Notes: generated by a model not told the origin, from the letters alone. A DNA stretch of 64,000 bases from an uncultured Candidatus Saccharibacteria bacterium (GCA_964512835.1 CAZELA010000002.1:105037-169036); one strand, 5' to 3'; shown: positions 22,801 to 52,928, counted from the stretch's first letter. Program-made: numbers and translations.

Positions 22801-25800
22801 ACAAAACTTATCGTATTTACCGGAAAAACATTCACGCCGGGCGGCAACATTACGCTGATCGGGGGCGCTGCAAATGCCTATGACGCAACGCTCGAGGTTG
22901 CAACGAGCTCAAGCCTGATCGCTGCAAATAATCAGTACTACTCGATCGGCGGGTCGCTGATCATCGGTAGCAGTGCGACGTTCACATCTGCCAGCTCGAC
23001 GGTCACCATGACCGCGACGACGACCGGTAAGACAATCACGCTCAATAATTCGACGCTCTACAATATCGTGTTCAGCGGAACCGGCGGCAACTGGGCATTC
23101 AGCGGCTCAACCATGACTGCGCTCGGCGACTTCCTCGTTACCGCCGGTACCGTTAACCTGCCGACCGCAACGTCAACGGTCGCGGGCTCGTTCCTCAATT
23201 CAGGCGGCACACTGCAGCACAACAACGGAACGCTCTACCTTACCGCGACCTCAACCGGCAAGGTGGTGCGACTGAATAATTCAAATCTCTACAATATCGA
23301 ATTCAACGGCACCGGCGGTGCATGGTCCTTTGCCGATGCGTCCGCCACGTCGTCGAACAATGTCACGATAACCGCCGGCACCGTGACCGCACCTACGACC
23401 ATGCTTACGGTCGGCGGATCATTCCAGAATTTCGGCACGTACACCGCAGGCGTCGGCACAACGAAGTTCACAGCGAACGCGACGGGTAAGTCGATCCGAT
23501 TCGGAGGTTCTGCGCTCTACAACATTCTCGTTGACGGCGTCGGCGGCGGCTGGACCATTACGGATACGAGCGCGACGGCGACACGCGACTTCACGATCCT
23601 GCACGGTACGACAACGCTACCGACGGGCACGTTCACGGTCGGCGGTTCCTGGACCACGACGGGCGCCGGCTTTACCGCGGCAACGACGAGTACGGTGCTC
23701 TTCAACGCGACCACGACCGGGAAGACCATCGATCCGGGCATCTCGACGTTCGGCGGCGTTACATTCAATAGTTCGGCCGGCGGCTGGACGGTATCACAGA
23801 GCGCGACGTCGACAGGTGACACAACGATCACTGCCGCGACAAGCTTTACGCTCTCGCCGAATAAGACGCTTGCGGTCGGGGGCACGTTCACGAACTCAGT
23901 CGGCGGCGCAGCGACCACCTGGGCGACCTCGACGCTCTATCTGTACTCGGGCACGAATTACTCTATTAATACAAAGTCGGCAGGGAACGATGTGTACGGG
24001 ACGCTCTTCGTGGGAGCAAACACCGATGTGCGTATGTGGAAGTCGACCGCCGCGACCACGACCGTTACCTCGACCGGTTCGCTGTACTCGCAGGACAATG
24101 CCGCAATCAACGGTACGGCTGTGGCGGGCAATTTGTACATCTGGGGAGAGTATGTTCGATCGTCAGGCAACGACTATTGGAGTTATGCGACCGACTTCGA
24201 CGGAGCGGCGCTCGGCGGCTCGTCGCGTATCGCAAACGTACGTATTGCAACGTCGAGCTCGGTTACGATTTCGGGTGGCTCGCTCGAAATAATCGGCGCT
24301 GCAGGTGCCACGACCACAATTCAAAACCAGGGTACAGGCAGCTATGCATTCACGGTTTCCGGCGGCACGTTCAACGCAACCCGCTACCAGATCCGTAATA
24401 CCGACGTGAACGGGCTCAACTTCACCGGTACGCCGGCGATCACGTCGCTCGATCTCGGTGACTTCCAGCTTGGAGTGAACGGCGGCAGCATGATATCGGT
24501 CAGCGGCGCAGCCATCGATGCCAACGCGTCGAAGCAGATCAGTTATGTGCAGTTCGCCACGTCAACCGGCATCGCATCCGGCTACAACGTGTCGCTCACG
24601 AGTTCATCGACTGCTGCATGGACGTTCCTGTCGCACTACGGAAACTATGCCGGTGAATCCTATGACTACGACGGAGCGGATACGTGCGGCAAGATTCGCT
24701 GGAGCGACAGCTCGTGTCTCTTTGTGAACCAGGGTCACTACCGATGGCGAAACGATGACGGCGGCGTCGGCGCTCCGACGACGGAATGGTACAACGCGTC
24801 ATGGTCGAAGCGACAGAAGGTTGTCGTCTCGAACTCGACGGCGTCCGTGCTCACGAATCAGGCGGTGCAGATCGTCGTGCCGTACGACGCAGACATGCAG
24901 AGCGACTTCGACGACCTACGGTTTACGGACTCGACCGGTACGACGTCGATCTCTTACTGGATCGAAAACACGAACGCATCGGCCTCATCGACGGTGTGGG
25001 TGAAGCTCCCGTCCGTTCCGGCAAACGGATCATCGGTCATCTATATGTATTACGGTAACTCCGGCGCGTCGGACGCAAGTAACGGCACAAACACGTTTAA
25101 GACGTTCGAAGATTTTGAATCGGGATCCGTGTCGGGTTATTCAGGCGACACGTCGCTCTTCAGCGTCGGTACTACATACCACCACACGCACACCTACGGG
25201 CTCGACGCCGGAACGAACTTCAATGACTTTACGACAAGCGGGTTGTATAAGACCGGCTCGCTGAGCGCGCAGGGCGATACGATCCACTTCTATCAGTATG
25301 TGGATGACTCGCGTGACGACGAGCCGTGTACGCTCTTCGGCGTGGGCGGTTCGGCAAATAACTATGCGGTATGTCTCGATCACTATCCGGTGGAGAGGAT
25401 TTCCATCGCAAAGAACGTAACGAGAAACGACGAAAGCGGTACGGTGCTCGCATCGACCACAGTCTCGTATTCGACCGGCTGGTACGACGTACGGGTGGAT
25501 TGGCTCACCAACAACTCTATTAATGTGACCGTATTGAATGACGACGGATCGGCATTTGCCACACTGAATACGACCGATTCAAGTCACACGAGCGGTGGGT
25601 ACGGGTTCTCGTACTGGGCGATGAAGGGCGGGTGGGACTTCTTCTCGGTTCGACCGTACGTATCGGCGACGCCGACGTATGTATTTGGTACCGAACAAAT
25701 TAGCGACGGCGCATCGTGGCTTGCCGCCGAGGACACCGTCACGTCCGGTATATCAACAGGACAGAATGTGCGCGTGCGATTCACGGTACAGAACACGGGG

Positions 25801-27003
25801 GCACCGCTCTCGAGTAAGCAGTTCAAATTGCAGTTCGCCGCCAAGAACGCATTGAACTGCGAATCAACGACCGGATTCAGTGATGTTCCGACGCAAAGCG
25901 GCGGCAGCTGCACCGGCAACGCTGCGTGTATGGCACCGTCGTCGCAGTTCGTTGATCAGACCTCGATCTCTGACCTCTTGTCTCGCCCGGCGAGCATGAC
26001 CTTTACGCAGGGCAAGATCGTCGAGGATACGTCGGCAACGACGAATGCGATCAATGTCGGCACGAACGAGGCAACGGAAGTCGAATTCAACTTCCAGCTC
26101 ACGACGAACGCCGTTGCCAATTCGTACTGTTTCCGCACCGCTCGAACCGATACGGGTGCACTCGACAGCTACGACCATGTGGCAGAGATCGGCCTCACGT
26201 TCCCGCCGACGATCTCGAATTTCAACTTCCCGCTCATCTACTACGCAACCAGTTCCGGTATCGCGCTGACAGAAGGTACGACCACGCTTGTATACGCAAC
26301 GGGAACGGTGACCGACTTCAACGGGTATGCCGATATCGTGCTCGCCTCGTCAACGATCTACCGATCCGGCGTCGGCTCGACATGTTCGGCGAATGACAAC
26401 AACTGCTACAAGGTTCCTTCGTGTGCACTCTCGCTCTGCTCCGGCAATTCGTGCACCATCACGTGCTCCGCAAATGTGCAGTATTTTGCAGAGCCGACCG
26501 ATGCACAAAGCCCCTCGTACAGTGCAGAAAGCTGGCTCGCGAGCGTGCGCATCCAGGATGCCGCAGGACTCTCGGCGACCGCGACGACGAGCGCGGAAAT
26601 GGGTACTATGCGAGGACTCTCCGTGAATACATCGATCGCATACGATGACGACACGATACCGGGTATGGATCCGGGTGCGAACACCGGTTCCCGCCTTGCT
26701 ACTACAACGGTCACAAACACCGGCAATTCGCCGATCGATATCCGTCTGTCCGGCGAAAATGTAGGCTCAATCCCGGTGAACAGTCAGAAGTATTCGACGA
26801 GCACGTTTACGTACGCCTCGTGCTCGGTCTGTGCGTTGCTCTCCGGCCCGTCGACTCCTGTCGGTGCAGGGCTTAATATCCCGAAAGCTACGGCCTCGAC
26901 GACGCCGACGACAAGCGACGTGTACTGGGGTATCTCGATCCCGATTCCCACCGCAACAGGGCTCCAGCAGGGAACTAACTACTTTGAAGCGGGAGCTCCG
27001 TGA
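7894..27003 (+). CDS. Giant (6369 aa) N-terminally anchored, multi-domain repeat-rich cell-surface protein (adhesin-like)
   Basis: One uninterrupted 19,110-nt ORF. It starts with an N-terminal signal-anchor (VAAALFAAAIVAYALY) and a Pro/Thr/Ala/Glu-rich linker. Next come three HxH...LPPY tail-collar-like repeats (about 10.9-11.8 kb) and FN3-like modules ending in TTYYWRVRA. Two copies follow of a region of about 570 aa with WNG[ST]SW blades. A long array of Thr/Gly/Ser beta-helix-like units of about 55 aa sits inside three near-identical 2.3-2.4-kb tandem repeats. The C-terminal region has a motif set (HYRWRNDDG..., LRFTD..G, VWVKLP, YMYYGN) that resembles DUF2341 (from memory), then a LamG/concanavalin-like region. 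The tail carries SWLASVRIQD....VYWGISIP, shared with the ORF at 32239..34140. Confidence 0.85.
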   Translation: MRLSHLNVRRNRVAAALFAAAIVAYALYTTGHYVTAYRETKSAHVFPTTATATGWDTPEAALSQELGANAPFESFDTTNSAHLSIAGNTPVVETPNIPPSAPDSTEQQPVENATTTPEAAPSGSEAPTAEPEQVPPAVVPEQTPSAPVETPSAVPAETPAATPAETPTTPATEAPPVETSVSKIFHTITSSLVKTAYATTTESALPDDTAGGGAETSSMTEDVPTCFLQQKECHTIQLDGFTVSGEITETNFEKANLNFSFAAGIGETELVDDKLEVRYYHAGKWREVGEIFLNKQLSNASNGGYFTATLDDVASWEEMSDIKVVIEYDRNNDSAVDLYLDAVWIDAQYRELLSDVVTDEDDIPELPENVVLELNEGGAVGELVLSDGTHVSFPYTDDLTDSLVIRADKVTYSRAGDVVYASLTNTSGVADSVRLYTAFPRGFGSVVDISELKKNVPTTTETPQYQEVTYLCDAGWKSLEVNATSTDTVASSSPAASYRCDATDEERVCSVLNDDKTNCSVDRVQVGSESSVTYSSGWVPLISIDGQTDQDSLSEFLPPLYRVLSKTTETIDILPGQTVYVRLRLESNETDALQFTLLAQGAAISGDLQSELLKSERELKGGEPLAKKKGNSRMFGRAEFDGDELPAFKFQFKSKRNFVSRGLNVLLGRGNEFGVSGVTFLREDGTEVTLPVSVEYGEDGQWTLEIKTHPREFRPGKYMADIVMHEGTDEFTERVEFYWGVLAMNINQSSYRPGETVPIALAALDDMGDTICDADIRLTVTDPTGTSTPVSVEQSGLCGDNNIIDVADYLAVYTTSLPGSYTAVATEYDDRGLIVHRVYDTFEVRAEVLFTIRRAGMTRIYPVAAYTMDLELTSSADFAGEFVESVPVDFDVLTSDGAEIRMYGGAKNLVWPVDLKAGETMKVSYTYDAPDISPYMYLLGPAQVQGASGLPFEEPRQWKIASDATGNMLLYWDSTYIPTGWTCVSCLPADSFYQRFVMGSSTAGTNGGAATTAHTATGAVTASASSQTVGANNRATPVVAHTHSFTPVITATSTLPAYRQLAIIQSNTAGEPSSIPTGAIAMFDAAVPSGWTAYTAQNGRYIRGESTSTAGTTGGSNTHKHDVSGTTGAAVTTVNAQNPGTTIAVAAAAHTHTLTATTTGSVSNEPPYIEVILGKLNATSSPTNQMIAMWSGDPPTGWTTTSSSSEAMANKFIKASTTYGGTGGAFTHSHIDMTNVPTGGPSGTVNRNNAAGTNVATAAHTHNVNITSFSTDSHLPPYRTAIFAKRVGGAAPSGPTLYDVLFANERTGTSTPAFEFSATDPDGADTIIYEFQWDDDSDLDTSPIGDRTSDVETGCSPNCFQNLTTPINTSPFTEGNRIRFTVQTPLVSGTTYYWRVRARESGGGGTWGTWATTTSFTYLAGTDPSQWFQTTDVQFDSNTMSGAETFGSDAARLAISPSQEALVVYGEGTVQTPRYRIWNGTSWSAESSANSVGGVIQWVVTKAAPTRDEYVSGTQDNVNDVNVQIFNGTTDTWGSVTEMTTGVANNARRGFDLTYESQSGDIMSVYCDGDADPSYRVWNGSSWSAPQTVNITSANNCEWISLASDPTSDEIILVERDTGAGYEAQVWDGSAWGNAKTLGSMTDTAHEGIAVKYEESGDQAMVVTSNGNTSGFVWTTWSGTSWGITQTQGLGDDFEWGRLRADDGSDKLSLCYIDEDADVGTLVWDGNAWDAFTTALDERDTIGNAKTDRAVDCAYETTTGRDGYVMLPYSDTAAAQYQYWNGTSWTAKAAISTIQDSWTVNAVRTSAGGVLAFFHDDVNSRYDFSDWNGISWSTATTLETVPSATTTPFYQPIDMVAQVYESSSGTMTGGTIDFDQVPGRQTWGEILWHTTEPSGTDVKLQVLYDSGSGCSTLVPDVALNANPGLNSIGYDATTSPINISGLSTSTYNRICVRATFTTTNTSAPQLDDWSVTWERQPYLTQTHFRWYANAATSLTPSDAWPSGGTDLAEDAAVPTIYSPSPGDVLRLRMSLLEENVSLSAGDLSVKLQYAEGATCSASLTWQDVGAIGSTTAKWRGYDNASLSDGATLASTLLAGSDTRATYEEANDSAVNPFSVSVGNELEYDWVIQHNATGNTNYCFRAVTSTGVTLNEYDLYPSLVTDSPPDAPTLESPFNNESLASTTPWFQFVSEDPENDDVTYQVQIDDASDFSSVNIDRDSQNNFAEFQNLVTPSDKDPFTPSNSTRFIPSSSLSNNTTYYWRVRAKDRTKSAEWSAWSGTQSFTVDTSVTISTWKQTTLYQFSTDDHEDTEATSTDSVVISSGFTVGTTSSSLIDFDWHTTGNAWGSFSFKHSTTSSSIRYHIEYFDTDVWSLVPDADLPGNSTGFVGTTSLLSMSPTIYNQIRIRADMTNSGASPRLDDWTIAWGYAVEQPAITTLFDNEKTATTTPSFTFKSGDPQSDDLVYEVSISTTQAFTSSTTRRSSLNTGFSNTASSTDTSPFTQNNLINFTLQAADALTNGTTYWWKVRAIDPTGGNVWSVWSDLRSFTVDTSVAVSTWFQTTDEQFQSDTLDNIETSGGKAQITSTIKEAFMVYSEGTVQVPRFRLWNGTVWGTELSGVSVGDTIRFEEAAAAPTRDEYIIMTEGSTGVVDAQVVDGATDTAGNIARINTAVSDPTQRGFDVAYETSSGDALAVACFGTEATYRVWNGSSWTATSTINLAVSTNCEWVKLVSDPTSDEIIMVVRDSTTGAVDYEALVWNGSAWGNSMTMGSQVTVANEGIAVEYEESGGQAIVAVSNGANNNFIWNSWNGSAWAGTATVAIGNDFEGGRIVRDVGTDRMTMCYIDADSDIGYATWGGSAWTGSTEVETLGNSVNDRPVSCEYETAGSRDGYTMMVHSDTTQAEYEYWNGSATTAPAVINTVTDSAEVRTARTGDGLIMAFFYDDANTEYDVTYWNGTTWSTEQQIEPTSITTVAPPTIPLDIVARRYPAFVAGSITSTAINFSDGTGPKWGAISFSKTTPGASTVKLQVEYFTSTSSWALIPDSVIPGNSVGTTTTLDMSNVNRITYSTIRMKANLACVAGNCPTLNDWTLTWAQGINVQGTVQQYDQSTNVTSGTVAVAVNGVKQTGKTATITGSGTFSIANVTVFQDDIVTVFVDGAGDASEAVAITKYDGNGDITGLNLYERHLSLGSDDNQTITNNNISQFDMSVAADDDIFYDVDAGNDLTATSTGTVWDVELWVKAGTTYRPDSASSGFATVYGLENNGTITMDGNTMTLLGSWDNNAVFNKDASTVIFAATSSTRTIDSTGASLSTFNHVTFGTASTAATWTLTTPLDVDGNLTLNFGTLSPATTAITIGGNLSIGASGTFTKGTATTTFDGSSSATWTDSTAAKQDMGSVAIDGTTKTVQLGSAVKATNITIGSDDTLNVTAGNYGIEVTGNWTNNNSFVAQSGTVTFSSTAVGKTIVPGSSSFYNITFNGIGGNWAFSQAVTAGNDFTIATGTVTLPSSTTTITGSFLVTGGAFQPNNGAVVFNSSATGKTVNPNTSPFYDLTFSGTGSWSFGVTNATSSRHVIITQGAVTMPSGTLAIGGSFRKTGGSFAHNNGILRFTASNAQTVQWSGSDAYQTYFSGTAGSWSFLDASATSTNNVRFEAGTSTLPSGTFAVGGSWIATNGGFTHNSGTVKFTATSTAKTISTGTSIFSSMWFDGVGGGWTLSGSTTAAGAFTLSNATAFTMSPNFTLAVGGAFTNAVGGSATTWATSTLSLYSGTNYSINTKTTGGDVYGTLSLGANTNIRSWNSTAATTTVASTASVYSQDNSTIGGTPVDGDLYIYGAFTSSANEYWSYATDFDGTALGVSSRQVNVRIATSSTIAYNTGTLQILGTSTATTTIQNQGTGRYAFAISGGTLQAQYYSVKNGDVNGFSISGSTAISSLADGDFELGVNGGTALKVTSTVIDANSALQIQRVRFATSTGITTGFNVTETGTPSSYWWFRNHYGNYAGESFDSDPGPNSGNPGYVRWDDSGFTISVSGNVYSDEGSTAIGSPACDGVTANVRIVVNFGSFASSTPCNASTGAYTISGITFSGDAVLTTYLNTNGGARAVTVTRTATANVTGLDLYQNEVIVRHEDVAPLTIANMAVYDSGDDSDIPFTAATGTPDTLTVSPGNELHVWTGKTFVPGGNMSLTSGGANGSKDGRLHIATSSVFTATGAESHSIGGGLAIQSGATFTTASSTFTFTATTTNKSIYAVAPISFWNTTFNGSGGSWSFDNGFSTTTVLNTMTFTAGTLTGTGDLTLTQGTLTGSGTVNMTGGTITLHGTGVFGNNNNWQFSTLSLGNGTNAGSSVKTGTGTTTVTGVLRINTLQRLYAATSSWVLSGSGTPFAVASGATFTAQVAPFTFSGTGATTVADQAYAALLLTPSAAGTPTYTLRGGTLSATSLAVGSTNPVAVDVNTNDPSLSISGTVTIGSGSTLIASNVGALDVGGSWSNLGTFTSSAGTVNFNSSDTGETIDPGQSSFATLSFNGVGGGWTILQNATSTGDTLLVNASAFTLSPNKTLAVGGTFTNSVGGSATTWATSTLSLYSGTSYSINTKSAGNDLYGTLLIGANTDVRMWNSSAATTTVNSTGSLYSQDHAAVDGSLYIWGEYVRSTGSDYWSYLTDFDGTSLATSTPRGVSVLIATSSSITLSGGSLDITGTTTATTTVQNQGTGRYAFTVSGGTFNAQYYQIRNTDLNGLSFTGSPTITTLSDGDLQLGVNGGSTITVAGTVIDANPLKIFQRNNFSTTTASGITSGFNVKATGSSGSSWKFNLHYGAFGGEAYDSDPDGDPGYLRWDDSASSISVSGNVYSDEGSTVSGACNGSTQVVRLKVQGAGTYTSSCSSATGAYSISGVAFNPGDTLTVFLDNATGTRRAANVSIDPISSISNMHLYENRVIVRHEDTSAITIAKMAQYDADQDSDIPFNATDAATDTLVATGTKLIVFTGKTFTPGGNITLIGGAANAYDATLEVATSSSLIAANNQYYSIGGSLIIGSSATFTSASSTVTMTATTTGKTITLNNSTLYNIVFSGTGGNWAFSGSTMTALGDFLVTAGTVNLPTATSTVAGSFLNSGGTLQHNNGTLYLTATSTGKVVRLNNSNLYNIEFNGTGGAWSFADASATSSNNVTITAGTVTAPTTMLTVGGSFQNFGTYTAGVGTTKFTANATGKSIRFGGSALYNILVDGVGGGWTITDTSATATRDFTILHGTTTLPTGTFTVGGSWTTTGAGFTAATTSTVLFNATTTGKTIDPGISTFGGVTFNSSAGGWTVSQSATSTGDTTITAATSFTLSPNKTLAVGGTFTNSVGGAATTWATSTLYLYSGTNYSINTKSAGNDVYGTLFVGANTDVRMWKSTAATTTVTSTGSLYSQDNAAINGTAVAGNLYIWGEYVRSSGNDYWSYATDFDGAALGGSSRIANVRIATSSSVTISGGSLEIIGAAGATTTIQNQGTGSYAFTVSGGTFNATRYQIRNTDVNGLNFTGTPAITSLDLGDFQLGVNGGSMISVSGAAIDANASKQISYVQFATSTGIASGYNVSLTSSSTAAWTFLSHYGNYAGESYDYDGADTCGKIRWSDSSCLFVNQGHYRWRNDDGGVGAPTTEWYNASWSKRQKVVVSNSTASVLTNQAVQIVVPYDADMQSDFDDLRFTDSTGTTSISYWIENTNASASSTVWVKLPSVPANGSSVIYMYYGNSGASDASNGTNTFKTFEDFESGSVSGYSGDTSLFSVGTTYHHTHTYGLDAGTNFNDFTTSGLYKTGSLSAQGDTIHFYQYVDDSRDDEPCTLFGVGGSANNYAVCLDHYPVERISIAKNVTRNDESGTVLASTTVSYSTGWYDVRVDWLTNNSINVTVLNDDGSAFATLNTTDSSHTSGGYGFSYWAMKGGWDFFSVRPYVSATPTYVFGTEQISDGASWLAAEDTVTSGISTGQNVRVRFTVQNTGAPLSSKQFKLQFAAKNALNCESTTGFSDVPTQSGGSCTGNAACMAPSSQFVDQTSISDLLSRPASMTFTQGKIVEDTSATTNAINVGTNEATEVEFNFQLTTNAVANSYCFRTARTDTGALDSYDHVAEIGLTFPPTISNFNFPLIYYATSSGIALTEGTTTLVYATGTVTDFNGYADIVLASSTIYRSGVGSTCSANDNNCYKVPSCALSLCSGNSCTITCSANVQYFAEPTDAQSPSYSAESWLASVRIQDAAGLSATATTSAEMGTMRGLSVNTSIAYDDDTIPGMDPGANTGSRLATTTVTNTGNSPIDIRLSGENVGSIPVNSQKYSTSTFTYASCSVCALLSGPSTPVGAGLNIPKATASTTPTTSDVYWGISIPIPTATGLQQGTNYFEAGAP
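12160..13880. repeat. Intragenic duplicated module, copy 1 (about 570 aa, repeated WNG[ST]SW blades, beta-propeller-like)
   Basis: The protein segment from TDPSQWFQTTDVQFDSN to WNGISWSTATT has 8 or more W-N-G-[ST]-[SAT]-W motifs spaced about 55-75 aa apart. Copy 2 is at 15550..17160 with the same blade order. Confidence 0.6.
15550..17160. repeat. Intragenic duplicated module, copy 2 (paralogous to 12160..13880)
   Basis: VSTWFQTTDEQFQSD....RFRLWNGTVWGTE...RVWNGSSWTAT...LVWNGSAWGNS...IWNSWNGSAWAG...TWGGSAWTGS...YWNGTTWSTE is collinear with copy 1 at the protein level. The nucleotide sequences have diverged. Confidence 0.6.
18900..24720. repeat. Three near-identical tandem long repeats (units about 2.45 kb, 2.32 kb, then a truncated third) inside the giant gene
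   Basis: The anchor string ctattaatacaaag recurs at 19196, 21641 and 23963 (spacings 2445 and 2322 nt). Each copy has long flanking runs of near-identical nucleotides (e.g. WATSTLSLYSGT.YSINTK...YWSY.TDFDGT...RIATSS...IQNQGTG.YAF..SGGT..AQYY...N.D.NG). Identity is high enough to be recombinogenic. Confidence 0.75.
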
Positions 27004-27704
27004 TGATTGCCATGACCACACAACGTTCACATACCCGTTCACCGAAAAAGCGCACCACCATGATCGTCAGCGCAGTCATTTTGTTGTGCGTGGCCGGTTT
27101 TGCGTACATCAATTTCAGCGCATCGCGATTCGAGAAGTCGTTTGGAGCGTACGACGCAGCTGAACGTGCCTACGAGGAATCCGCCTTCAAACCCGGCGCG
27201 GAGGAAAATCCGGTGCGCCAGCAGGTTAACCAGTTACTTGCACAGGTGCTGCAGGTGGACATGTCGCAGGAGGCGCGTATAGACATGGCGCGGCAGGGTA
27301 TCGCGCACCTTGATGATATTGAAGATCAGATCGATGATGTGAAGGAAAAAGGGGATGTTGTCGCGCCGCTTCTTGCCTCCGTTGAAAAAGGCGCACGCTC
27401 ACCGGGTAATGCGGCAAAGCGATCGGATCTGATGGAGATCGTGAAGCTCGGTAAGCGCCAGACCGAGATTATTGCTGATATTCGCGGTCTTTCGTACCGG
27501 GCCGACTACTACACGACCGAGATCTTTGAACGGGTGATTGACGACCAGGGTCTGATAACCGACGACCATAAGACCTACCTCAACGGCCAGATCCCGCAGC
27601 TCGAAGAGCAATTCAATAAGCGTTCAAATCTGTATAGGGAGCTGGCCGACAACCGTTCAAAACTCAACGAACTTGCCGTAAAGCTCGGGTACACGAGCCA
27701 ATAG
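27003..27704 (+). CDS. Membrane-anchored helical protein (hypothetical). Its start overlaps the giant-gene stop.
   Basis: The GTG at 27000 or ATG at 27003 overlaps the TGA at 27001..27003 (translational coupling). It has a basic N-terminus, one TM (MIVSAVILLCVAGFAYINF) and then a charged, largely helical domain of about 190 aa. No known motif. Confidence 0.5.
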   Translation: MIAMTTQRSHTRSPKKRTTMIVSAVILLCVAGFAYINFSASRFEKSFGAYDAAERAYEESAFKPGAEENPVRQQVNQLLAQVLQVDMSQEARIDMARQGIAHLDDIEDQIDDVKEKGDVVAPLLASVEKGARSPGNAAKRSDLMEIVKLGKRQTEIIADIRGLSYRADYYTTEIFERVIDDQGLITDDHKTYLNGQIPQLEEQFNKRSNLYRELADNRSKLNELAVKLGYTSQ

Positions 27705-27730
27705 CGGGGAGGTGGGGATATGCAGTCGGA

Positions 27731-28081
27731 ATGAATAGAGTACAATGGCGAGCAACTATGGAAGAAACGTACACACACGACCACGATGTGCATGCGCGTC
27801 GAGAGACCGGGGGTTTTATGCGTACCGTCGATAGCATCAGTGACTTTTTTGTGCGGGCGCTCGGCACCATTGCACACGATGCTTCACTCTTTATCGGGGT
27901 AGCGCTCACGCTCGTCGGTTTGCTTTCGATCGAGGCTGATAAGTTCTGCGACGGTAACACCGCGGACTATTTGTCATGCACACGACCGTCGACCTACTAC
28001 TTTTACAGTCCGCTTGATATTGCGATCGTTGTTGTCGGTGTATTTTTGATTCTGATTTGGGTACGCAGCCGTCGTGACTGA
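27731..28081 (+). CDS. Small membrane protein (hypothetical), 2 TM
   Basis: 116 aa with two hydrophobic helices (LFIGVALTLVGLLSI; IAIVVVGVFLILIWV). Followed by a terminator hairpin. Confidence 0.4.
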   Translation: MNRVQWRATMEETYTHDHDVHARRETGGFMRTVDSISDFFVRALGTIAHDASLFIGVALTLVGLLSIEADKFCDGNTADYLSCTRPSTYYFYSPLDIAIVVVGVFLILIWVRSRRD

Positions 28082-28126
28082 TTTTTCCCGAGACTGCGAA
28101 CGTTGAACGAAACACGGGTGTTACAC

Positions 28127-28154
28127 TGAAGAGGCCACGCGCGGCCTCTTTTTG
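28127..28154 (+). terminator. Rho-independent terminator
   Basis: AAGAGGCC-ACGCGC-GGCCTCTT stem followed by TTTTT, immediately before the FN3 gene start. Confidence 0.55.
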
Positions 28155-28156
28155 AT

Positions 28157-29596
28157 ATGCAACACTCGATACACGCACGGATCAAAGCGATATGCATCAC
28201 ACTGTGTGCCGCTGCGATCGTCGTGATTGCGTTTCGCGCATATGCTGCCGAAATATCCAATGTAAAGATCACCGACGTAAAGTCGGATTCCGCGACTGTA
28301 TCGTGGTCGACCGATAAAAAAACGGATGCGACCATCAATTTCGGTCTTGATGAGCGGTTCGGTACGGTCCGCGACAGTGCGTTTGATAAAAAAGACCATA
28401 CGCTCACCATCGACAGCCTCGAGCCTGCGACCACGTACCACTTCCGTGTCGTCTCGACGGACGAAGAGGGCAACAAAAGCACGACTGCCGGGTATGTGTT
28501 CACGACAAAAGACGATCAACAGAAGATCAAAGAGCGCATCATCAAGGACATCAAAAAGATCAAGGAGCCCGAAGCGATCCTTGAGATCAATGAACAGGTA
28601 AAGGAAACCGCCGGCGACATATTGAAACCGCCCACGATTCTCGGTCTCCCGCGTGTGACGGTGGATCAGACAAAGGCGACCATCGTATGGACGACCGACC
28701 GTGAATCAAGCTCCATGGTGTACCTATCGCCCGACAGTGACTACACCGGCTCGTCGAACGATTACACGATTGCGCAGGGTGATCCGAATGCGTCGGAATC
28801 CAAGCACACGGTCGAGGTCATCGGGCTCGAGCCGTCGACGCTGTATCACTTCAAAGTCGTCTCCGATGACTCAACAGGGCTTGCCGGTGAAAGCGAAGAC
28901 GACACGTTCAAGACCAAATCGATCCTGCCTTCGATCAGGAACGTAAAGGTAAACCGTATTCAGGAAAAATCCGCCGTCATTTCGTGGGACACCGGCGGTG
29001 TGCTTGCGCGCGGTATCGTGGAGTACACGAATACACGCACCAAGATCACGAAGGTCGCAGGTTCATCCGTCTTTGCTGCAAATCAGAATGTGCAGCTTGC
29101 CGATCTTGAATTCGGCACGCGTTACACCGCAGTCATCCGTACCACCAACCAGGACGGTGACAACGCCGAGAGCCAGCCGTTTCAGTTCATTACCATCCGC
29201 GACGTGATCCCGCCGGCGATTTCAAAGGTAAAGAACGAATCAACGCTCTTCCCGGGGGAAGACGTGAAAATCCAGACCATTATCGCGTGGGAGACCGATG
29301 AGCCTGCGACGTGCCAGGTGTTTTACTCTCAGGGACTTTCGACCGGAAACGGCGGAACGGGTGCAGAATTCGTGCCGAAAGAAACGAATCCGCTGACATC
29401 GCACACCTCGGTCATCGTCGGGTTTACGCCGGGCACCGTCTATCAATTCTGGGTAGTCTGTAACGATGAGGGTCAGAACGAAAGCCGTTCGGAAGACTTC
29501 GTGCTGATCACGCCGATCAAGGAAAAGTCGATCATCGACATCATTCTTCAGAACTTCCAGGGTACATTCGGCTGGGTCAACAACATCGGCAAATAG
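28157..29596 (+). CDS. Membrane-anchored protein with four fibronectin type III-like repeats (purple-acid-phosphatase-N-like FN3)
   Basis: N-terminal TM/signal (ICITLCAAAIVVIAF). Four repeats follow, of the form VK[IV]T....S.ATVSW.TD........G......GT.........H...I..LEPATTYHFRVVSTD..GN. Confidence 0.75.
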   Translation: MQHSIHARIKAICITLCAAAIVVIAFRAYAAEISNVKITDVKSDSATVSWSTDKKTDATINFGLDERFGTVRDSAFDKKDHTLTIDSLEPATTYHFRVVSTDEEGNKSTTAGYVFTTKDDQQKIKERIIKDIKKIKEPEAILEINEQVKETAGDILKPPTILGLPRVTVDQTKATIVWTTDRESSSMVYLSPDSDYTGSSNDYTIAQGDPNASESKHTVEVIGLEPSTLYHFKVVSDDSTGLAGESEDDTFKTKSILPSIRNVKVNRIQEKSAVISWDTGGVLARGIVEYTNTRTKITKVAGSSVFAANQNVQLADLEFGTRYTAVIRTTNQDGDNAESQPFQFITIRDVIPPAISKVKNESTLFPGEDVKIQTIIAWETDEPATCQVFYSQGLSTGNGGTGAEFVPKETNPLTSHTSVIVGFTPGTVYQFWVVCNDEGQNESRSEDFVLITPIKEKSIIDIILQNFQGTFGWVNNIGK

Positions 29597-29597
29597 T

Positions 29598-30944
29598 ATG
29601 GCAAAAACTTCCATTCGTACCGACAAGATGTTCATTACCTACAACAAGGGTAAATCGAACGAATTCAAGGCGCTGCAAGACGTGAACGTCGAGATCTATC
29701 CGCGCGAATACATCATTCTGTTCGGTCCGTCCGGCTGCGGAAAGTCGACACTTTTGTACACCATGCTCGGCGGTATTCCGCCGTCCGACGGTCACATGTT
29801 CGTGCAGAACGAAGACATTTATGCGTATACGCCCGAGGAGTTGAACCGCTATCAGCAGACGACGATCGGCATCGTGTATCAGCAGTTCAACCTGATTTCG
29901 TCGCTCTCCGTTATCGATAACGTCGCGCTACCCATGCTCTTTTTGGGCATACAACCTGCCGAACGACTGGCTCGTGCGGCGCAGCTATTGCGTCGATTCG
30001 GAGTGCCGGAGCGCGTCGAGAATAAACTTCCTGTGGAAATGTCCGGCGGTCAGCAGCAGCGTGTTGCCGTTGCGCGCGCACTCATCAACGACCCGGAAAT
30101 TCTGCTCGCCGACGAACCGGTGGGTAACCTGGACTCCATTTCCGCAGAGCACGTTATGGATTCGTTCCAAGAGATCAATGAGCGCGACCGCAAAACCGTG
30201 ATCCTCGTTACGCACGATGCGAAGTACCTTCCGTATGCGCACCGGGTGTTCTACATGCGCGACGGCAAACTACGCCGCATCGTCGTGAACCCGCAGAAAG
30301 AGCAGGTCAAACGAACGAAGCCCGGCGAGACCATCGTGACCGAGATCGAGCAGCTTGCACGCATGTATCCGTATGCGGAACCGGTGGAGTTGAAGGTGAA
30401 GAGTGTCGTGAACTTCGTTACGCAGTCGATCGGATTCAGCCAGGTGCAACGCCTCGAAGAAGCAATTCTGTATGTGCTGAAGGGCACCATGAACGAACAG
30501 ATGTTCTCGGAGTTTTTGGGGAAGCCGTTCCATCTGGGCGGCGTCGGTATTCCGCCCGAAGAAGTGGAGCCGATGGCAAGCAGGGTGTTCAACCTTATCC
30601 GCTATTCGATCGATGTGCAGCGATTCCGAAGCGAGACCCAGAGCGACAACATGTTTATGCACCAACAAAAGTTCGTTGAGCGACTGCTCACGTACCTGAA
30701 AGAAGAAGTCGGGTTTCAGTGTTCGCAGGAGCAGCTACGCACGCTCCGCGAAGCGGTTGCCGACCGCGTAGGCGGCATTACCGATGCCGAACAGTTCAGT
30801 GAAAGGCTTTTGTTGAACAACGAAATGGGCGGCGCAGGATTCGAGGAACGAATGGGATACAAAATAGCAGTGCACATGGAAAAACTTATCGCCCAAGGCG
30901 GGTACGTCATTCTCCCGAACGAACTGGAGGGAGGCCACACTTGA
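29598..30944 (+). CDS. ABC transporter ATP-binding protein (MacB/LolD/FtsE-type) with an atypical C-terminal extension of about 220 aa
   Basis: Walker A is GPSGCGKST, the Q-loop is VYQQFNL, the signature is MSGGQQQRVAVARAL, Walker B is ILLADEP and the H-loop is VTHD. The ABC domain ends near residue 230. A further domain of about 220 aa with no motif I recognise follows. Confidence 0.9.
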   Translation: MAKTSIRTDKMFITYNKGKSNEFKALQDVNVEIYPREYIILFGPSGCGKSTLLYTMLGGIPPSDGHMFVQNEDIYAYTPEELNRYQQTTIGIVYQQFNLISSLSVIDNVALPMLFLGIQPAERLARAAQLLRRFGVPERVENKLPVEMSGGQQQRVAVARALINDPEILLADEPVGNLDSISAEHVMDSFQEINERDRKTVILVTHDAKYLPYAHRVFYMRDGKLRRIVVNPQKEQVKRTKPGETIVTEIEQLARMYPYAEPVELKVKSVVNFVTQSIGFSQVQRLEEAILYVLKGTMNEQMFSEFLGKPFHLGGVGIPPEEVEPMASRVFNLIRYSIDVQRFRSETQSDNMFMHQQKFVERLLTYLKEEVGFQCSQEQLRTLREAVADRVGGITDAEQFSERLLLNNEMGGAGFEERMGYKIAVHMEKLIAQGGYVILPNELEGGHT

Positions 30945-30945
30945 T

Positions 30946-32154
30946 ATGCAGGTACGCGACATTGCATTGCTTTCGACCCGTATGTTCAAAACGAACCCGT
31001 CTCGTACGTGGCTTACGATTTTGGGCATGGGTGTGGGAACGGGTGCCGTTGTGGCGCTGGTGGGTTTGGGCTTCGGTCTCCAGAGCATCATCCTCGACAA
31101 GATCGTGCTCGGCGACTCGCTGCTCTCGCTCAACGTTTCGAACCCCGCATCAAAGATCGTCGTGCTCGACCTGCCGACGACCGAAGCGTTCGCTGCCATG
31201 GATACGGTCAAAGATGTTTCCGGCGTGGTTACGTTCCCGACGCTTGTTACGTATCAGGGTCTGACCGGTAACGCCAACATTCAGGGTCTCGCGCCGTCGT
31301 ACTTTTTGTATACCGGCGCACAGGCTGCGGCAGGGGATCTGTTTACGAATGAGGACGCAGAGACCGATCGCAATGCGGTCGTTATCAGTAGTGCCATGCT
31401 GAAGCTCTTCGGTGTCGAAGATCCCGAAGAGGTGCTCGGTAAAACGCTTACCTTTCGCGTATTTGTACCGAACGAAGGCAGTGAATCAACGACAGAAGTG
31501 CAGCTGCCCAAGCAGTACAAGATCAAGGGGGTAACGGCCGACACCGGCAACCTGTCCGCAGCGATCACGCTCGAGGAGTTTCAGTCCAATTTTAAGATTC
31601 CGTATTTCGATCGCGTACAGGTGCGTGTAATCGACACCAAATCACTGCCACTCGCCCAGGACGCCATCATTGCTAAGGGTTTTACCGTGACCGCACTCTC
31701 AAAAACAGTGGAACAGGCGAACAAGATCTTTCAGGGCATCCAGGTGATTCTCGCGGTGTTCGGCGGCATTGCGCTTACGGTATCCGCGATCGGTATGTTC
31801 AACACCATGACCGTTACGCTCCTCGAGCGTACGGCCGAGATCGGTGTTATGCGTACGATCGGCGCATCGTCAAAAGACATCGTTATCTTGTTCGTGGCAG
31901 AGGCCATTATCGTGGGTTTGTTGGGCGGTGTGGTGGGGATCCTCATCGGGGGAGGCATCGGCATGTTCTTCAACGGACTCCTCTCAGTGGCTGCAAGTAA
32001 ATTCGGGGGAGAATCGGTCAGTCTCTTCAAATACCCGGTCTGGTTCCTTATATTCATCTGCTCGTTCTCGGGCGGGGTAGGGTTCCTCACGGGGCTTTTT
32101 CCGGCTAGGCGTGCCGCAAAGATCAACCCGCTCGACGCGATCCGTTACAAATAG
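30946..32154 (+). CDS. ABC transporter permease, FtsX/MacB family (4 TM with a large extracytoplasmic domain between TM1 and TM2)
   Basis: TM1 is TWLTILGMGVGTGAVVALVGLGFGL. A soluble domain of about 230 aa follows, then three C-terminal TMs with the FtsX-like motif LERTAEIGVMRTIGAS..DI. Its start is 1 nt after the ATPase stop. Confidence 0.85.
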   Translation: MQVRDIALLSTRMFKTNPSRTWLTILGMGVGTGAVVALVGLGFGLQSIILDKIVLGDSLLSLNVSNPASKIVVLDLPTTEAFAAMDTVKDVSGVVTFPTLVTYQGLTGNANIQGLAPSYFLYTGAQAAAGDLFTNEDAETDRNAVVISSAMLKLFGVEDPEEVLGKTLTFRVFVPNEGSESTTEVQLPKQYKIKGVTADTGNLSAAITLEEFQSNFKIPYFDRVQVRVIDTKSLPLAQDAIIAKGFTVTALSKTVEQANKIFQGIQVILAVFGGIALTVSAIGMFNTMTVTLLERTAEIGVMRTIGASSKDIVILFVAEAIIVGLLGGVVGILIGGGIGMFFNGLLSVAASKFGGESVSLFKYPVWFLIFICSFSGGVGFLTGLFPARRAAKINPLDAIRYK

Positions 32155-32238
32155 CATTCAGTTAAGCCGTAAAATCGGTACTTATCCACATTGGAAACCC
32201 TCGTAAAGAGGGTACGGGTGCTACGATTCTTAGTAAGT

Positions 32239-34140
32239 ATGTCCGAAACGATGCATCGGAGGCTAGGCGTATTCCTCAAACGGACACGCACGACCGAGGG
32301 AAAGATCACGATTTTTACGTCGCTGGTCGGCTGTTTGGTCTTGGTATGCGTATTTACGATATTCCAGGTGAACGTGCCTGTGGCAAGCGCCGACGACGTG
32401 CAGACGTCTGTCACTGTGCTTAACACACCGCCCACATTTGATACCGATGTCGCTGAATCTCCGGCATCCGCTACGACAACGCCCACGAACGCTGGGGCGG
32501 TGTTGTCGTTCACGGTGCAGGCCACCGACTCGTCGGGAGACAACTACTACCTGCTAATCTGCAAGGTTGGAGGGACGGCAACGGGCAACTCGGGCGCTGC
32601 GCCCACATGCCCAGGCGGTATATCGAATCAGTGGGCGGTATCGGGCGCAACGGCGAGCGGTGCCGTAGCAACGGCCGCAACCACCACCAAGAACGATCTG
32701 CCGTTCAATAACGAGCGCAACGACTGGTTTGCGTACATTTGTGATAACAACGCGACGCTCGCGCGCTGCAACGCAACCGCAAACCGCGGAACACCCAATG
32801 CTGATAGCGCGTCTCCGTTCTTTATCAACCACATCCCGGTGTTTTACTCACTCTCCAACAACTCCCCACAAAACCCGGGCGGTACCGTAACCTGGACCAC
32901 CGGATCGTCGGACCCTGATTCGCTGGCCGGGGCGCAAAATATTACGTTATACGTGTGTAAGACGGCGGCATTTAACGGGTCGCAGTGCACAACGGGCGGT
33001 GCATGGGCAACGTCTACAGCGGTTACCTCGAATGCGGGTACATCAACACCTATTGCGATTCCGACCGCCGATCGCTTGTATAACGCCTATGTATACATCT
33101 CGGATCAATACGGACTCGCCGCAACGTCCTCGTTCCAAGGATCGAACTCGTTCTTTTCTGTAAGTAACCAAACGCCTTCGATAAGTGCGGCAGGCATCAG
33201 TCTGCTTGATACGGACAACGTTGGTAACCTTACGCTTACCGTACCGCAGGCGACATCCGGCCCGTTCAAGGTTCAGTTCGTGGTCGCGGACAACAACGGG
33301 TGTTTGAATGCATCATCTACAAGCGAAATTGTTTCCAATGTGATTTCGGTGTACCGATCAAGTGCAACATGCACATCCGGCTCTAACTACGATTCCAACA
33401 ACTGCTATGCATCGTCGTCGCCCTTGTTCACGCCGTTCTATTCGTGTGCCATTGATTCCGCGGTCAACGCCTGCAGTGGCGCAACGGACAGCGATGTCGG
33501 CGTGACATGCACGTTCTCGCTGTGGTACAACGCCGACGCAACAGACGGTGTTTCCTCTGCAACGTCTGTGTACTTTGCCGACAACTGGCTCGCTGCGGTG
33601 CGAGCAACCGATGACAACGCATCGTCGAGTCCGGTTACGGTCTCCTCGACCGGTAATGAGCTGACGAGCTTCCTCGCGTTCGATGTTTCTACAACGACTG
33701 TGGCATACGGCTCGTTGCAGCCGGGCGAAACAACAACGCCGATGATCGCCAACACCGACCTCAAGGCAGTCGGTAACGTGGGTCTCGATGAGGATCTCTA
33801 CGGTTCCACCATGTGCACCACCTGGGTGGGTGGAGGCGGCGGTTCGGCTCCGGATAACTGCGATGTCGGTGGTCCGAACGCAGGTACCAAGATCCCGGTA
33901 GGCCAGCAGCGCGTCGCAACATCATCTATCGCGTATTCATCGACCGATTCGTACACGCTTACCGCATCGACTTCGCCGGCATCGGTCCTGATCAACGTGC
34001 AAAAGACAACTGCTACGAGCTCGCCGCAAACCAAGAACACCTATTGGGGTATCGCGATCCCGACGACCATCACACTCGCCGGTAACTACTCGGGCCAAAA
34101 CACTATCGTCGGAAAGAAGAGCAGTCCTGCTAACTGGTAG
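32239..34140 (+). CDS. Secreted/anchored Thr/Ser-rich protein. Its C-terminal domain is paralogous to the giant protein's C-terminus (NWLAAVRATDD ... YWGIAIP).
   Basis: The start is trimmed to ATG 32239 (the track begins at 32191). A signal-anchor (IFTSLVGCLVLVCVFTIF) is followed by the mature N-terminus ADDVQTSVTVL. The C-terminal region of about 250 aa aligns by eye with the last 250 aa of the 6369-aa protein. Confidence 0.7.
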   Translation: MSETMHRRLGVFLKRTRTTEGKITIFTSLVGCLVLVCVFTIFQVNVPVASADDVQTSVTVLNTPPTFDTDVAESPASATTTPTNAGAVLSFTVQATDSSGDNYYLLICKVGGTATGNSGAAPTCPGGISNQWAVSGATASGAVATAATTTKNDLPFNNERNDWFAYICDNNATLARCNATANRGTPNADSASPFFINHIPVFYSLSNNSPQNPGGTVTWTTGSSDPDSLAGAQNITLYVCKTAAFNGSQCTTGGAWATSTAVTSNAGTSTPIAIPTADRLYNAYVYISDQYGLAATSSFQGSNSFFSVSNQTPSISAAGISLLDTDNVGNLTLTVPQATSGPFKVQFVVADNNGCLNASSTSEIVSNVISVYRSSATCTSGSNYDSNNCYASSSPLFTPFYSCAIDSAVNACSGATDSDVGVTCTFSLWYNADATDGVSSATSVYFADNWLAAVRATDDNASSSPVTVSSTGNELTSFLAFDVSTTTVAYGSLQPGETTTPMIANTDLKAVGNVGLDEDLYGSTMCTTWVGGGGGSAPDNCDVGGPNAGTKIPVGQQRVATSSIAYSSTDSYTLTASTSPASVLINVQKTTATSSPQTKNTYWGIAIPTTITLAGNYSGQNTIVGKKSSPANW

Positions 34141-34229
34141 GTACGCTGTTGCGCAAAAGGGGTTCAAAGTCGGGGAATATCCAGGTTTTACTGGACTTTT
34201 GAGGGCCTCACCGTGATACTATTGAGACC

Positions 34230-35228
34230 ATGATGTCACTGCCGTGGCGGCTGTTAGGACTGCGGTTTTTTGCCGCCCTACTCTTGATACTTGTCTTTTT
34301 TGGCGGGTTCAGGTTTGCCTCGGCCGGATTTGGTATCACGCCGCCGTACGTCCAGAATGAACGCCTCACGCGCGGAACGGTGTATGAACAGCGCATCACC
34401 ATTGTGCGCTCGGACCCGACCGTAGATCAAAAAGCGGAGATAAGTATGAACATCCCGGGTGTCGAATCCTGGTTCGTCGTTGACCGTGGCACATCGTTCC
34501 TGCTTCCAAAAGGTGAGACGCAGGTACCGATCGTGATCGCGGTGCATGTGCCGGCAGATGCAGAATACACACGGCACCAAGGAACCATCCGAATCCGCAC
34601 GTCGTCAGCGGAGGGTTCAGACGGTGGAGCCGGCGTGTCGATTGCACTCGGTGCGCAGATCGACGTTGATATTAAGGTCGTCGACAAGATCTACGATTTT
34701 GACGTGCGACGCATTCGCAGTGCGGACGTGGAAGAGAGTCGTCGCAGGTGGGGACTTGTGTTCCCGGCAAAGATTCGGTTTTTCATGACGATCGAGAACA
34801 CGGGTAATGCTGTGTACGGACCGACAAAAGTAAAATTTGATATCTACGACAGCGAGGTGGAGAAGCTATACGAGACGACATACAACACCAACAAGATCGA
34901 TCAGATCGATCCGTTCGCGATCAAGGAAGTGCTCGCGGAATTGCCGACGCGGTTACCAGTGGGGCGCTACACGGCTAAGTACACGATCTACAAGGGCGAA
35001 GAGATCGCGCAACAGAATCAGATAAATCTTTCGATTGCATCGCTCGGCGCCGTGCAGGGGTATACAGGCTACGGTTTTGACGGGCTCTCGACAAAGGACA
35101 AACTGAAAGTTGCCGGCGTTGTTTCGATACCTGTACTGCTTTTGCTGAGCCTGTTCATCGCACTTGGCGTGCGCCGCCGCAGACAGCGGGCCCGCCGTAA
35201 CGCATACCAAAACGCGGCTCGCCGCTAG
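34230..35228 (+). CDS. Surface protein with signal peptide, beta-rich ectodomain and a C-terminal TM anchor (DUF916/CscA-like architecture)
   Basis: Signal peptide (LLGLRFFAALLLILVFFGGFRFASA). The ectodomain carries the motifs WFVV, HVPADAEYTRHQGTIRI and VAGVVSIP. A TM (VLLLLSLFIALGV) follows, then a basic tail (RRRRQRARR). Same layout as 54768, 56114 and 58937. Confidence 0.7.
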   Translation: MMSLPWRLLGLRFFAALLLILVFFGGFRFASAGFGITPPYVQNERLTRGTVYEQRITIVRSDPTVDQKAEISMNIPGVESWFVVDRGTSFLLPKGETQVPIVIAVHVPADAEYTRHQGTIRIRTSSAEGSDGGAGVSIALGAQIDVDIKVVDKIYDFDVRRIRSADVEESRRRWGLVFPAKIRFFMTIENTGNAVYGPTKVKFDIYDSEVEKLYETTYNTNKIDQIDPFAIKEVLAELPTRLPVGRYTAKYTIYKGEEIAQQNQINLSIASLGAVQGYTGYGFDGLSTKDKLKVAGVVSIPVLLLLSLFIALGVRRRRQRARRNAYQNAARR

Positions 35229-35234
35229 CGCGGT

Positions 35235-36371: not shown

Positions 36372-36403
36372 ATATGACGCTAAAAAACCGCTATACTGCT
36401 CGT

Positions 36404-39078: not shown

Positions 39079-39093
39079 GAGAAAAGTCTAGCA

Positions 39094-40486: not shown

Positions 40487-40490
40487 TCAC

Positions 40491-51614: not shown

Positions 51615-51635
51615 TTATTAAGTACCGAAAATAGT

Positions 51636-52514: not shown

Positions 52515-52524
52515 GCCTGTATCC

Positions 52525-52923: not shown

Positions 52924-52928
52924 GGCCT

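Follow-up and report, generated by a model that had tools for sequence, protein, structure and literature searches.

A 64,000-nucleotide (nt) stretch of DNA from an uncultured Candidatus Saccharibacteria bacterium, referred to in its entirety as the window, contains three adjacent genes that encode a fibronectin type III (FN3) repeat protein, an ATP-binding cassette (ABC) ATPase with a long C-terminal extension and a MacB/FtsX-type permease. This trio is a type VII ABC system with a new family of cytoplasmic domain and a new class of FN3 partner. By analogy with characterized relatives, the chances appear evenly balanced that the three proteins work as one machine, a type VII (MacB/FtsX-fold) ABC mechanotransducer of the Patescibacteria with the FN3 protein as its extracytoplasmic partner. 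The anatomy of the trio and the linkage of its genes are solid and specific; its function is something we infer. The features of the three genes are as follows (aa, amino acids; AF2, AlphaFold2; NBD, nucleotide-binding domain; TM, transmembrane segment).

28157–29596, + strand: FN3-repeat partner gene (479 aa; Pfam; orthologue directly upstream of the ATPase in 40 of 41 species)
28166–28258, + strand: N-terminal hydrophobic segment (aa 4–34), signal peptide or signal anchor (hydropathy scan)
28247–28510, + strand: FN3 repeat 1 (about aa 31–118; Pfam; conserved W/TD/YxFRV pattern)
28511–28636, + strand: charged, probably helical linker between FN3 repeats 1 and 2 (about aa 119–160; sequence composition)
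28637–29197, + strand: FN3 repeats 2 and 3 (about aa 161–347; best Pfam stretches aa 170–253 and 259–344)
29204–29512, + strand: FN3 repeat 4 (about aa 350–452), in the conserved C-terminal module (conservation, sharing)
29513–29593, + strand: conserved hydrophobic C-terminal tail PIKEKSIIDIILQNFQGTFGWVNNIGK (aa 453–479), proposed docking element (alignment)
29598–30944, + strand: ABC ATPase gene with C-terminal extension (448 aa; Pfam, NCBIfam, motifs)
29598–30287, + strand: NBD of MacB/LolD/FtsE type (aa 1–230) with all catalytic motifs (NCBIfam, Foldseek)
30288–30422, + strand: low-confidence linker (about aa 231–250), then two strongly conserved short helices (GETIVTEIEQLARMYPY...LKVKS..N) (AF2, conservation)
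30432–30617, + strand: extension repeat unit 1 (aa 279–340), helix, G, helix, GGVG loop, helix (hhalign, AF2)
30618–30722, + strand: end of the long helix and connector helix between the units (aa 341–375; AF2 models)
30723–30908, + strand: extension repeat unit 2 (aa 376–437), helix (R..GG), helix, GGAG loop, helix (hhalign, AF2)
30946–32154, + strand: MacB/FtsX-type permease gene (402 aa, four TM; Pfam; directly downstream of the ATPase in 47 of 47 species)
31081–31725, + strand: permease extracytoplasmic domain (aa 46–260, ~215 aa) between TM1 and TM2 (hydropathy, MacB_PCD)

The three open reading frames lie exactly where a preliminary description of this DNA had placed them, as tightly linked genes with gaps of 1–2 nt, and a single nucleotide separates each stop codon from the next ATG. 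At some metagenome loci (L085, L086, L104 and L141) inserts of 0.5–4 kb separate the ATPase from the FN3 gene or from the permease, so the tight coupling seen in the window is not universal.

The ATPase, whose 448 residues are exactly the length of many of its orthologues, is by its motifs catalytically complete and of the MacB/LolD/FtsE type. A match to ABC_tran covers aa 26–175 (Pfam, E 7e-30). Walker A is at 43 (GPSGCGKS), the Q-loop at 94, the signature motif at 148 (MSGGQ), Walker B at 168 (ILLADEP), the D-loop at 176 (GNLD) and the H-switch at 204 (VTHD). The best NCBIfam matches were DarD, LolD, FtsE, MacB and DevA, with a bacteriocin exporter also among the top, and the LolD, FtsE, MacB and DarD models stop at about aa 226–247, leaving about 200–220 aa unmatched. 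Both results agree with the earlier statement that an ABC ATPase with all canonical motifs runs on for ~220 aa past the normal end of its domain. The top Foldseek matches of the NBD model were MJ0796, the MacB NBD, Spr0694, BceA, LolD, FtsE, HrtA and YbbA (TMt 0.87–0.95), with YtrE also among the best, and the full-length model aligned with known structures over the NBD only (~228 columns). Public annotation of the family is confined to "hypothetical protein" and "putative ABC transport system".

The extension is a folded all-α domain comprised of two homologous three-helix units. When modeled in isolation by AF2 with the family alignment it is all-helical, with a mean pLDDT (predicted local distance difference test) of 80 and a pTM (predicted template modeling score) of 0.75, and in the full-length ATPase model (mean pLDDT 89.5, pTM 0.70) most of it lies at pLDDT 85–96. 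The two units are a tandem duplication, aligned with one another by hhalign over 62 columns (probability 96.7%, E 3.3e-10), and both are laid out as helix, Gly, helix, GGxG loop, helix. In the AF2 model the helices of unit 1 span residues 280–295, 300–308 and 320–346; unit 2 closes with EKLIAQG, which is invariant within this clade. The unit signature across the family reads ...R..G.I....F...L.LP...GG.GL...A......LE.L, and two units were counted in 43 of 47 full-length members and three in 2. The linker that joins the extension to the NBD has pLDDT 60–73. Conservation is 0.84 in the block aa 241–260, and the GETIVTEIEQLARMYPY segment just ahead of the repeat units matches the NBD core in conservation. 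The extension is acidic (pI 5.0), the family median being 6.1.

Residues 230–448 gave no match in Pfam or NCBIfam, and 24 members of the extension family searched against Pfam at E up to 1 gave no consistent match. Foldseek returned no clear fold counterpart for the extension (best E 1.1), and none of the known C-terminal domains of ABC ATPases (TOBE/MalK, NIL/MetN, CBS, Wzt_C, oligo_HPY and ABC_tran_CTD) was matched. The preliminary description had called the extension uncharacterized, and this holds, as no known fused domain was matched by sequence or by structure prediction and fold search. Several individual candidates were discarded. Phosphoglycerate kinase, the sole sequence match in the PDB, has a best E of 0.78 and is attributed to chance. 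SHOCT (PF09851) reached at best 15.6 bits against a cut-off of 27, over 11–13 residues (GIITxEEF) in 3 of the 24 members. A helix-hairpin-helix (HhH) DNA-binding role for the GGxG loops was rejected on three counts: the HhH consensus spacing differs, the domain is acidic and no HhH family was matched. A YqeY-like match in one distant member (26.3 bits, cut-off 27) sits in an extra tail past the extension and does not identify the extension itself. Nor do the long tails of P0083, P0086 and P0148 hold additional repeat units; they are low-complexity sequence rich in Pro, Lys, Ser and Thr. In a distant clade (P0024, P0026, P0027 and P0029–P0031; loci L001, L002 and L004) the extension is followed by an extra basic, amphipathic tail of ~35 aa, AKKFEEMDKGxLxKxxxxLHRxKK. 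At L001 gene calling splits both the ATPase gene and the FN3 gene in two, which points to frameshifts or errors of assembly.

The architecture of an NBD followed by an extra cytoplasmic domain is shared with MalK, MetN, ModC, OpuA-CBS and Wzt, whose additional domains dimerize, mediate trans-inhibition or recognize substrate. Those domains are β-rich (TOBE, NIL/ACT-like, CBS and jelly-roll) and belong to importers or ABC-2 exporters, whereas the extension of the trio is all-α, internally duplicated and carried by a type VII NBD, with no match to them in sequence or fold.

The permease has a MacB_PCD match at aa 21–242 (E 6.3e-21) and an FtsX match at aa 271–395 (E 1.6e-16), and hydropathy places four TM at about aa 21–45, 261–287, 307–343 and 363–387. 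Conservation is 0.42–0.66 in the extracytoplasmic domain versus 0.75–0.98 in the TM. These data confirm a permease of the FtsX/MacB family with a large extracytoplasmic domain, and the NBD matches, permease domains and topology together uphold the assignment of the system as MacB/FtsX-type (type VII). Of the defining features of the type VII superfamily, those of sequence and predicted structure are present: a complete NBD of MacB/LolD/FtsE-like type and a 4-TM permease in which a large extracytoplasmic domain separates TM1 from TM2 and an FtsX domain lies at the C terminus. The further hallmark, mechanotransmission by ATP-driven movement of the extracytoplasmic domains with no route for a substrate across the membrane, is a proposal for the trio.

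The FN3 protein consists, in order, of a signal peptide or anchor, FN3-1, the charged linker, FN3-2, FN3-3, FN3-4 and the conserved C-terminal tail. Pfam matched Pur_ac_phosph_N in four stretches (E 1.3e-28) as well as fn3 (E 3.9e-24); the matches were confined to FN3-type families, and no hydrolase domain was found in the operon proteins scanned. As read from the sequence, the hydrophobic N terminus closes with AYA|AE, a motif typical of signal peptidase I cleavage, and the leader may therefore be removed. The four repeats of what had been described as a membrane-anchored protein are thus borne out by Pfam, and its anchoring is uncertain. The linker between FN3-1 and FN3-2 is less conserved than the repeats on either side.

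The most strongly constrained part of the FN3 protein is its last FN3 domain together with the 27-aa hydrophobic tail, TPxKEKSIIDIILENFxGTFGWvkNIGK. FN3-4 has identities of 0.59–0.81, among the best-conserved blocks of the protein, and is common to the 1152–3058-aa partners of distant systems. The tail is near-invariant across 23 aligned sequences, distant FN3 giants included, and the same module of FN3-4 and tail (core KEKSIIDIILENFxGTFGW) terminates the giant FN3 partners of those distant systems.

Relatives of the extension are few. A word-indexed search of 5.8 billion proteins recovered only 41, whereas a profile search run exhaustively over 1.84 billion cluster representatives gave 284 with E up to 1e-3 (154 with E up to 1e-10). 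In 52 representatives a Walker A motif occurs together with the extension, and there the extension follows the NBD. ABC_tran was present in all 10 longer proteins scanned, and in every complete protein examined the extension is fused to this ATPase. Longer members add low-complexity tails. A genome scan by the EKLIAQG motif found 49 species, a lower bound given its reliance on a single motif. All are metagenome-assembled genomes of Patescibacteria, labeled Paceibacterota, Parcubacteria, Adlerbacteria, Kaiserbacteria or Spechtbacterales; many third-party annotation (TPA) records among them carry the label "Candidatus Saccharibacteria", which is unconfirmed. One of the 49 loci is 99% identical to the window.

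Synteny was counted over these species at loci with enough flanking sequence. The permease is downstream of the ATPase in 47/47 and the FN3 gene upstream in 40/41, and the trio is therefore syntenic in related genomes. In the Paceibacteria-type genomes recovered it sits in the middle of an operon of about 13 conserved genes for secreted or anchored proteins, in which the ATPase alone has no hydrophobic leader (hydropathy scan). The first of these genes encodes a giant protein that, scored by its C-terminal 1000 aa, lies upstream of the ATPase in 23/27. The extended ATPases are thus usually linked to giant-surface-protein loci in such genomes.

The reverse search used the FN3 C-terminal module alone against metagenome contigs and yielded 54 loci at which the sequence continues for 1.5 kb or more downstream. 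An NBD with extension is encoded within 700 nt downstream in 47 of the 54 and within about 2 kb in 3 more. Since synteny from the ATPase and the search from the FN3 module agree, the linkage holds in both directions. Among distant systems, P0083 is preceded by an FN3 protein of 1152 or 2301 aa and followed by the permease and hrcA-grpE-dnaK-dnaJ (L054–L056), P0103 is preceded by a 3058-aa FN3 protein, P0162 by a 2076-aa Kelch-plus-FN3 protein and P0060 by an FN3 C-terminal fragment. These data tie the extended ATPase strictly, and in both directions, to the FN3 C-terminal module across distant lineages, and the deepest and tightest partnership of the ABC pair is with the FN3 protein, via that module. 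Because distant family members keep the trio in other contexts, the trio, and not the larger operon, is the ancient unit. The suggestion that the transporter serves the neighboring giant adhesin and a "WxL-like" module is consequently not supported in the form in which it was put, as the trio stands alone beside hrcA-grpE-dnaK and the ATPase–permease pair occurs between secY and adk. No description of the FN3-ATPase-permease trio or of the extension domain was found in literature searches; published accounts of Patescibacteria include giant proteins that carry DUF2341 or FhaB domains, and they annotate ftsEX as a matter of routine (PMC11809585, PMC13059738).

The trio appears to be an envelope machine specific to its lineage and not a common transporter. 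In the mechanism we propose, the ATPase and permease would assemble as (ATPase)2(permease)2, and ATP binding and hydrolysis would move the extracytoplasmic domains, by analogy with FtsEX-EnvC, LolCDE-LolA and YbbAP-TesA (PMC7668044, PMC12646458, PMC5985334). The C-terminal module of the FN3 protein would dock on these domains, so that the protein would act as a rod, extending into the cell wall and surface layer, that the complex holds or moves. The extension may form a cytoplasmic platform hanging below the ATPase dimer that sets the ATPase cycle, either by dimerizing or through a cytoplasmic factor or ligand bound at the conserved R/GGxG loops. It would thus resemble in role the C-terminal domains of MalK or MetN, whose fold is unrelated, and may be the regulatory or partner-binding module that the preliminary description had suggested. 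In Paceibacteria-type genomes the machine would be built into the ~13-gene surface operon and would probably anchor, position or actuate that apparatus.

Several points weigh against this proposal. Four of the 54 FN3-tail loci have no ATPase downstream. In one distant lineage (P0124; L061/L062) the ATPase and permease lie between secY and adk, in a ribosomal-protein operon, with no adjacent FN3 gene, and in one Paceibacteria-type species (L019 1402–3751) murA-murB lies directly upstream of the ATPase in the place of the FN3 gene. The placement of the NBD relative to the extension is uncertain in the model (pTM 0.70, low-confidence linker). The extension matches no described domain, and the role given to it is borrowed from other ABC ATPase C-terminal domains; likewise, the contact between FN3 tail and permease, the stoichiometry, and mechanotransmission as opposed to transport are all drawn by analogy. 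The ATPase inserted between secY and adk (L061 8001–11047, L062 1228–4274) bears the extra YqeY-like tail, and in its ribosomal-protein operon the L30 gene is missing between S5 and L15, a trait of the Candidate Phyla Radiation (CPR). At L019 the downstream surface genes are kept despite the murA-murB genes upstream.

A bolder version of the mechanotransducer proposal, which we hold to be doubtful, makes the trio a hitherto unrecognized class of ATP-driven envelope actuator specific to Patescibacteria, with the extension as a sensor or clutch that gates a MacB-type mechanotransducer holding the C terminus of the FN3 rod. ATP would then be used from inside the cell to extend, retract, tension or release a host-attachment apparatus. 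The rod itself would be a giant adhesin in some lineages, and in Paceibacteria-type genomes it would link the motor with both the giant protein and a cohesin/dockerin scaffold of the same operon.

Unlikely, by our estimate, is an extractor or release machine akin to LolCDE, HrtBA or YbbAP, in which the FN3 protein would be substrate rather than fixed partner and its tail, or the C-terminal domain that the giant and a 649-aa protein of the operon have in common, would be pulled from the membrane and passed to the wall or surface. Known type VII systems do take lipoproteins, haem or hydrophobic compounds out of the membrane (PMC12646458, PMC5985334), all the other operon proteins are secreted or membrane-anchored, and the tail segment IIDIILENFxGTFGW is hydrophobic with a modest helical moment (mean hydrophobicity 0.27, moment 0.30). 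However, the tail is too short, and its ends too polar, for a TM anchor, and neither a LolA-like carrier nor an acylation signal is apparent. Moreover, distant lineages pair only with the FN3 protein, so the giant and 649-aa proteins cannot be general substrates.

The trio resembles FtsEX, which acts with EnvC, PcsB, CwlO or RipC, in having separate genes for the ATPase and a 4-TM permease, a large TM1–TM2 extracytoplasmic domain, a dedicated elongated partner encoded nearby and, by analogy, a likely role in signaling or force rather than transport. A functional analogue of FtsEX that controls cell-wall hydrolases in growth or division, with the FN3 protein as adaptor, would suit these elongated partners (PMC7668044, PMC10694151) and the housekeeping contexts secY-adk (one lineage), murA-murB (L019) and hrcA-grpE-dnaK (L054–L056). 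Nonetheless, we consider it distinctly improbable. The FtsE equivalog TIGR02673 scored 172.4 bits against a cut-off of 264.85, and the FtsX equivalog models 27.6–42.3 bits against 225–255, over the TM2–TM3 region only. The extracytoplasmic domain is of MacB_PCD rather than FtsX type, the partner consists of arrayed FN3 repeats and a conserved C-terminal tail in place of a coiled-coil-plus-hydrolase/activator architecture, and the ATPase carries a cytoplasmic domain of ~200 aa that FtsE does not have. No LytM, CHAP, NlpC/P60 or amidase domain was found in the FN3 protein or the neighbors scanned, and other Patescibacteria genomes carry genes annotated as ftsE and ftsX (PMC11809585, PMC13059738).

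In fold and sequence the NBD is closest to MacB, the MacB-like Spr0693-0695, LolCDE and YbbAP-TesA, and the permease matches MacB_PCD and FtsX over its full length. The trio differs from this group in that its NBD is not fused to the permease, in lacking a MacA/HlyD adaptor, a second permease paralogue and a LolA- or TesA-like partner, and in its unique extra cytoplasmic domain. The MacB equivalog NF007826, whose cut-off is 966 bits, scored only 166.9 and 87.7, with no HlyD-type match among the neighbors scanned; the LolD equivalog scored 172.7 against 307.75 and the lolCE model 66.1 against 362.45, for a single permease gene. An ordinary MacB/BceAB-type efflux or resistance pump for a peptide, lipid or antimicrobial, with the surface-protein neighbors incidental, would accord with the best NCBIfam matches (the darobactin exporter DarD, the bacteriocin exporter and MacB) and the public annotation as a transport system, but it is highly improbable, as those matches fall far below the equivalog cut-offs, no HlyD/MacA adaptor, histidine kinase or precursor-peptide gene was found among the proteins scanned, and a pump would not be expected to stay so strictly and reciprocally tied to the FN3 C-terminal module in different lineages.

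The Patescibacteria (CPR) are a large, mostly uncultured share of bacterial diversity whose cultured members live attached to other cells, and how their attachment surface is controlled and built is largely unknown. Here a compact three-gene module recurs across distant lineages of the group, and the signature of its partner, the last FN3 domain with KEKSIIDIILENFxGTFGW, can be searched in any genome to find the cognate surface protein, be it 479 or more than 3000 aa long. The known type VII members FtsE, LolD, MacB, BceA, HrtA and YbbA have no such cytoplasmic domain as the extension, which, if the mechanotransducer proposal is true, would represent a new mode of cytoplasmic control for mechanotransmission ABC systems. 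The analysis also flags the ~13-gene surface-structure operon as a candidate host-interaction apparatus in CPR. In the window, the genes of this operon other than the trio are the following, with synteny relative to the ATPase.

7894–27003, + strand: giant surface protein (6369 aa), first gene of the operon in this clade (Pfam Ig_Rha78A_N, DUF2341)
27000–28081, + strand: two small membrane proteins between the giant and FN3 genes (synteny), one of 234 aa with one TM and a helical region (upstream, 27/39) and one of 116 aa with two TM (upstream, 30/41)
32191–39993, mixed strands: conserved downstream surface-protein genes (synteny, Pfam), comprising the next six lines
within 32191–39993: 649-aa protein, Cys-rich, with the giant's C-terminal domain in common (downstream, 42/44)
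34230–35228: 332-aa protein, WxLIP-like with a C-terminal TM (downstream, 38/40)
within 32191–39993: 378-aa protein with DUF4215, Big and dockerin-like matches (downstream, 36/38)
within 32191–39993: 317-aa protein (downstream, 35/36)
within 32191–39993: 335-aa protein with a faint, sub-threshold cohesin match
within 32191–39993, − strand: 261-aa protein (cohesin and dockerin) and 299-aa protein

The last ~220 aa of the giant (window 26330–27003) are homologous to the C-terminal ~250 aa of the 649-aa protein (33320–34140), with 29% identity (E 1e-16), and both proteins finish near a YWGI(S/A)IP motif. In the family of the 649-aa protein at least 14 cysteines and a C-terminal Trp are invariant. 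The 234-aa membrane protein has no Pfam match.

The region 32239–35228 had been described as a WxL-like/DUF916-like module, a claim that has moderate support for the 332-aa protein and none for the 649-aa protein. The former family aligns with the WxLIP_PGBD-like proteins of the window over both β-sandwich domains and the C-terminal TM anchor (hhalign probability 75–83%, E about 1e-5); the window protein itself has no Pfam match, and 1 of 20 family members matches WxLIP_HBD (E 2.4e-4). Weak Wzt_C matches were seen in 3 of the 20. For the 649-aa family, a scan of 20 members gave no Pfam match at E up to 0.01. Compared with the WxL/DUF916 (Csc) clusters of Firmicutes, the 332-aa protein has the WxLIP layout of two β-sandwich domains and a C-terminal TM anchor, but no WxL-domain protein was detected at this locus. 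Csc clusters are not known to contain an ABC system, an FN3 partner or giant proteins.

Weak cohesin- and/or dockerin-like matches occur at 6061–7743, 35235–36371, 37285–38292, 38293–39078 (− strand) and 61333–63033, with Big_6/Big_13 Ig domains in two of these proteins. Such matches suggest a putative surface scaffold in the cohesin-dockerin style in a non-cellulolytic organism.

A scan of 26900–39200 for promoters and terminators gave no signal above shuffled background. Between the 116-aa gene and the trio, at 28129–28153, lies a perfect 8-bp hairpin (AAGAGGCC / ACGCGC / GGCCTCTT) followed by a T-run, for which RNAfold gives a structure with 9 bp paired (−15.1 kcal/mol) and whose stem ends 6 nt 5' of the FN3 start codon. 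It resembles a terminator or attenuator and was not listed by the consensus scan. It is present in the window and the conspecific L005 only and absent from 39 other species, which rules out a conserved hairpin 5' of the FN3 start.

A second giant cluster, at 40407–60019, has no ABC system. Its 3735-aa protein (40407–51614) lacks the C-terminal domain that the first giant shares with the 649-aa protein, and about eight genes for secreted proteins come after it. Three of these proteins are of similar size (448, 447 and 438 aa), and two have WxLIP_PGBD-like matches (56114–57430 and 58895–60019). Upstream of the surface-protein operon are genes for tRNA-Met (3492–3566, − strand), tRNA-Asp (4006–4080, + strand) and a signal peptidase I (S26; 5007–5639).

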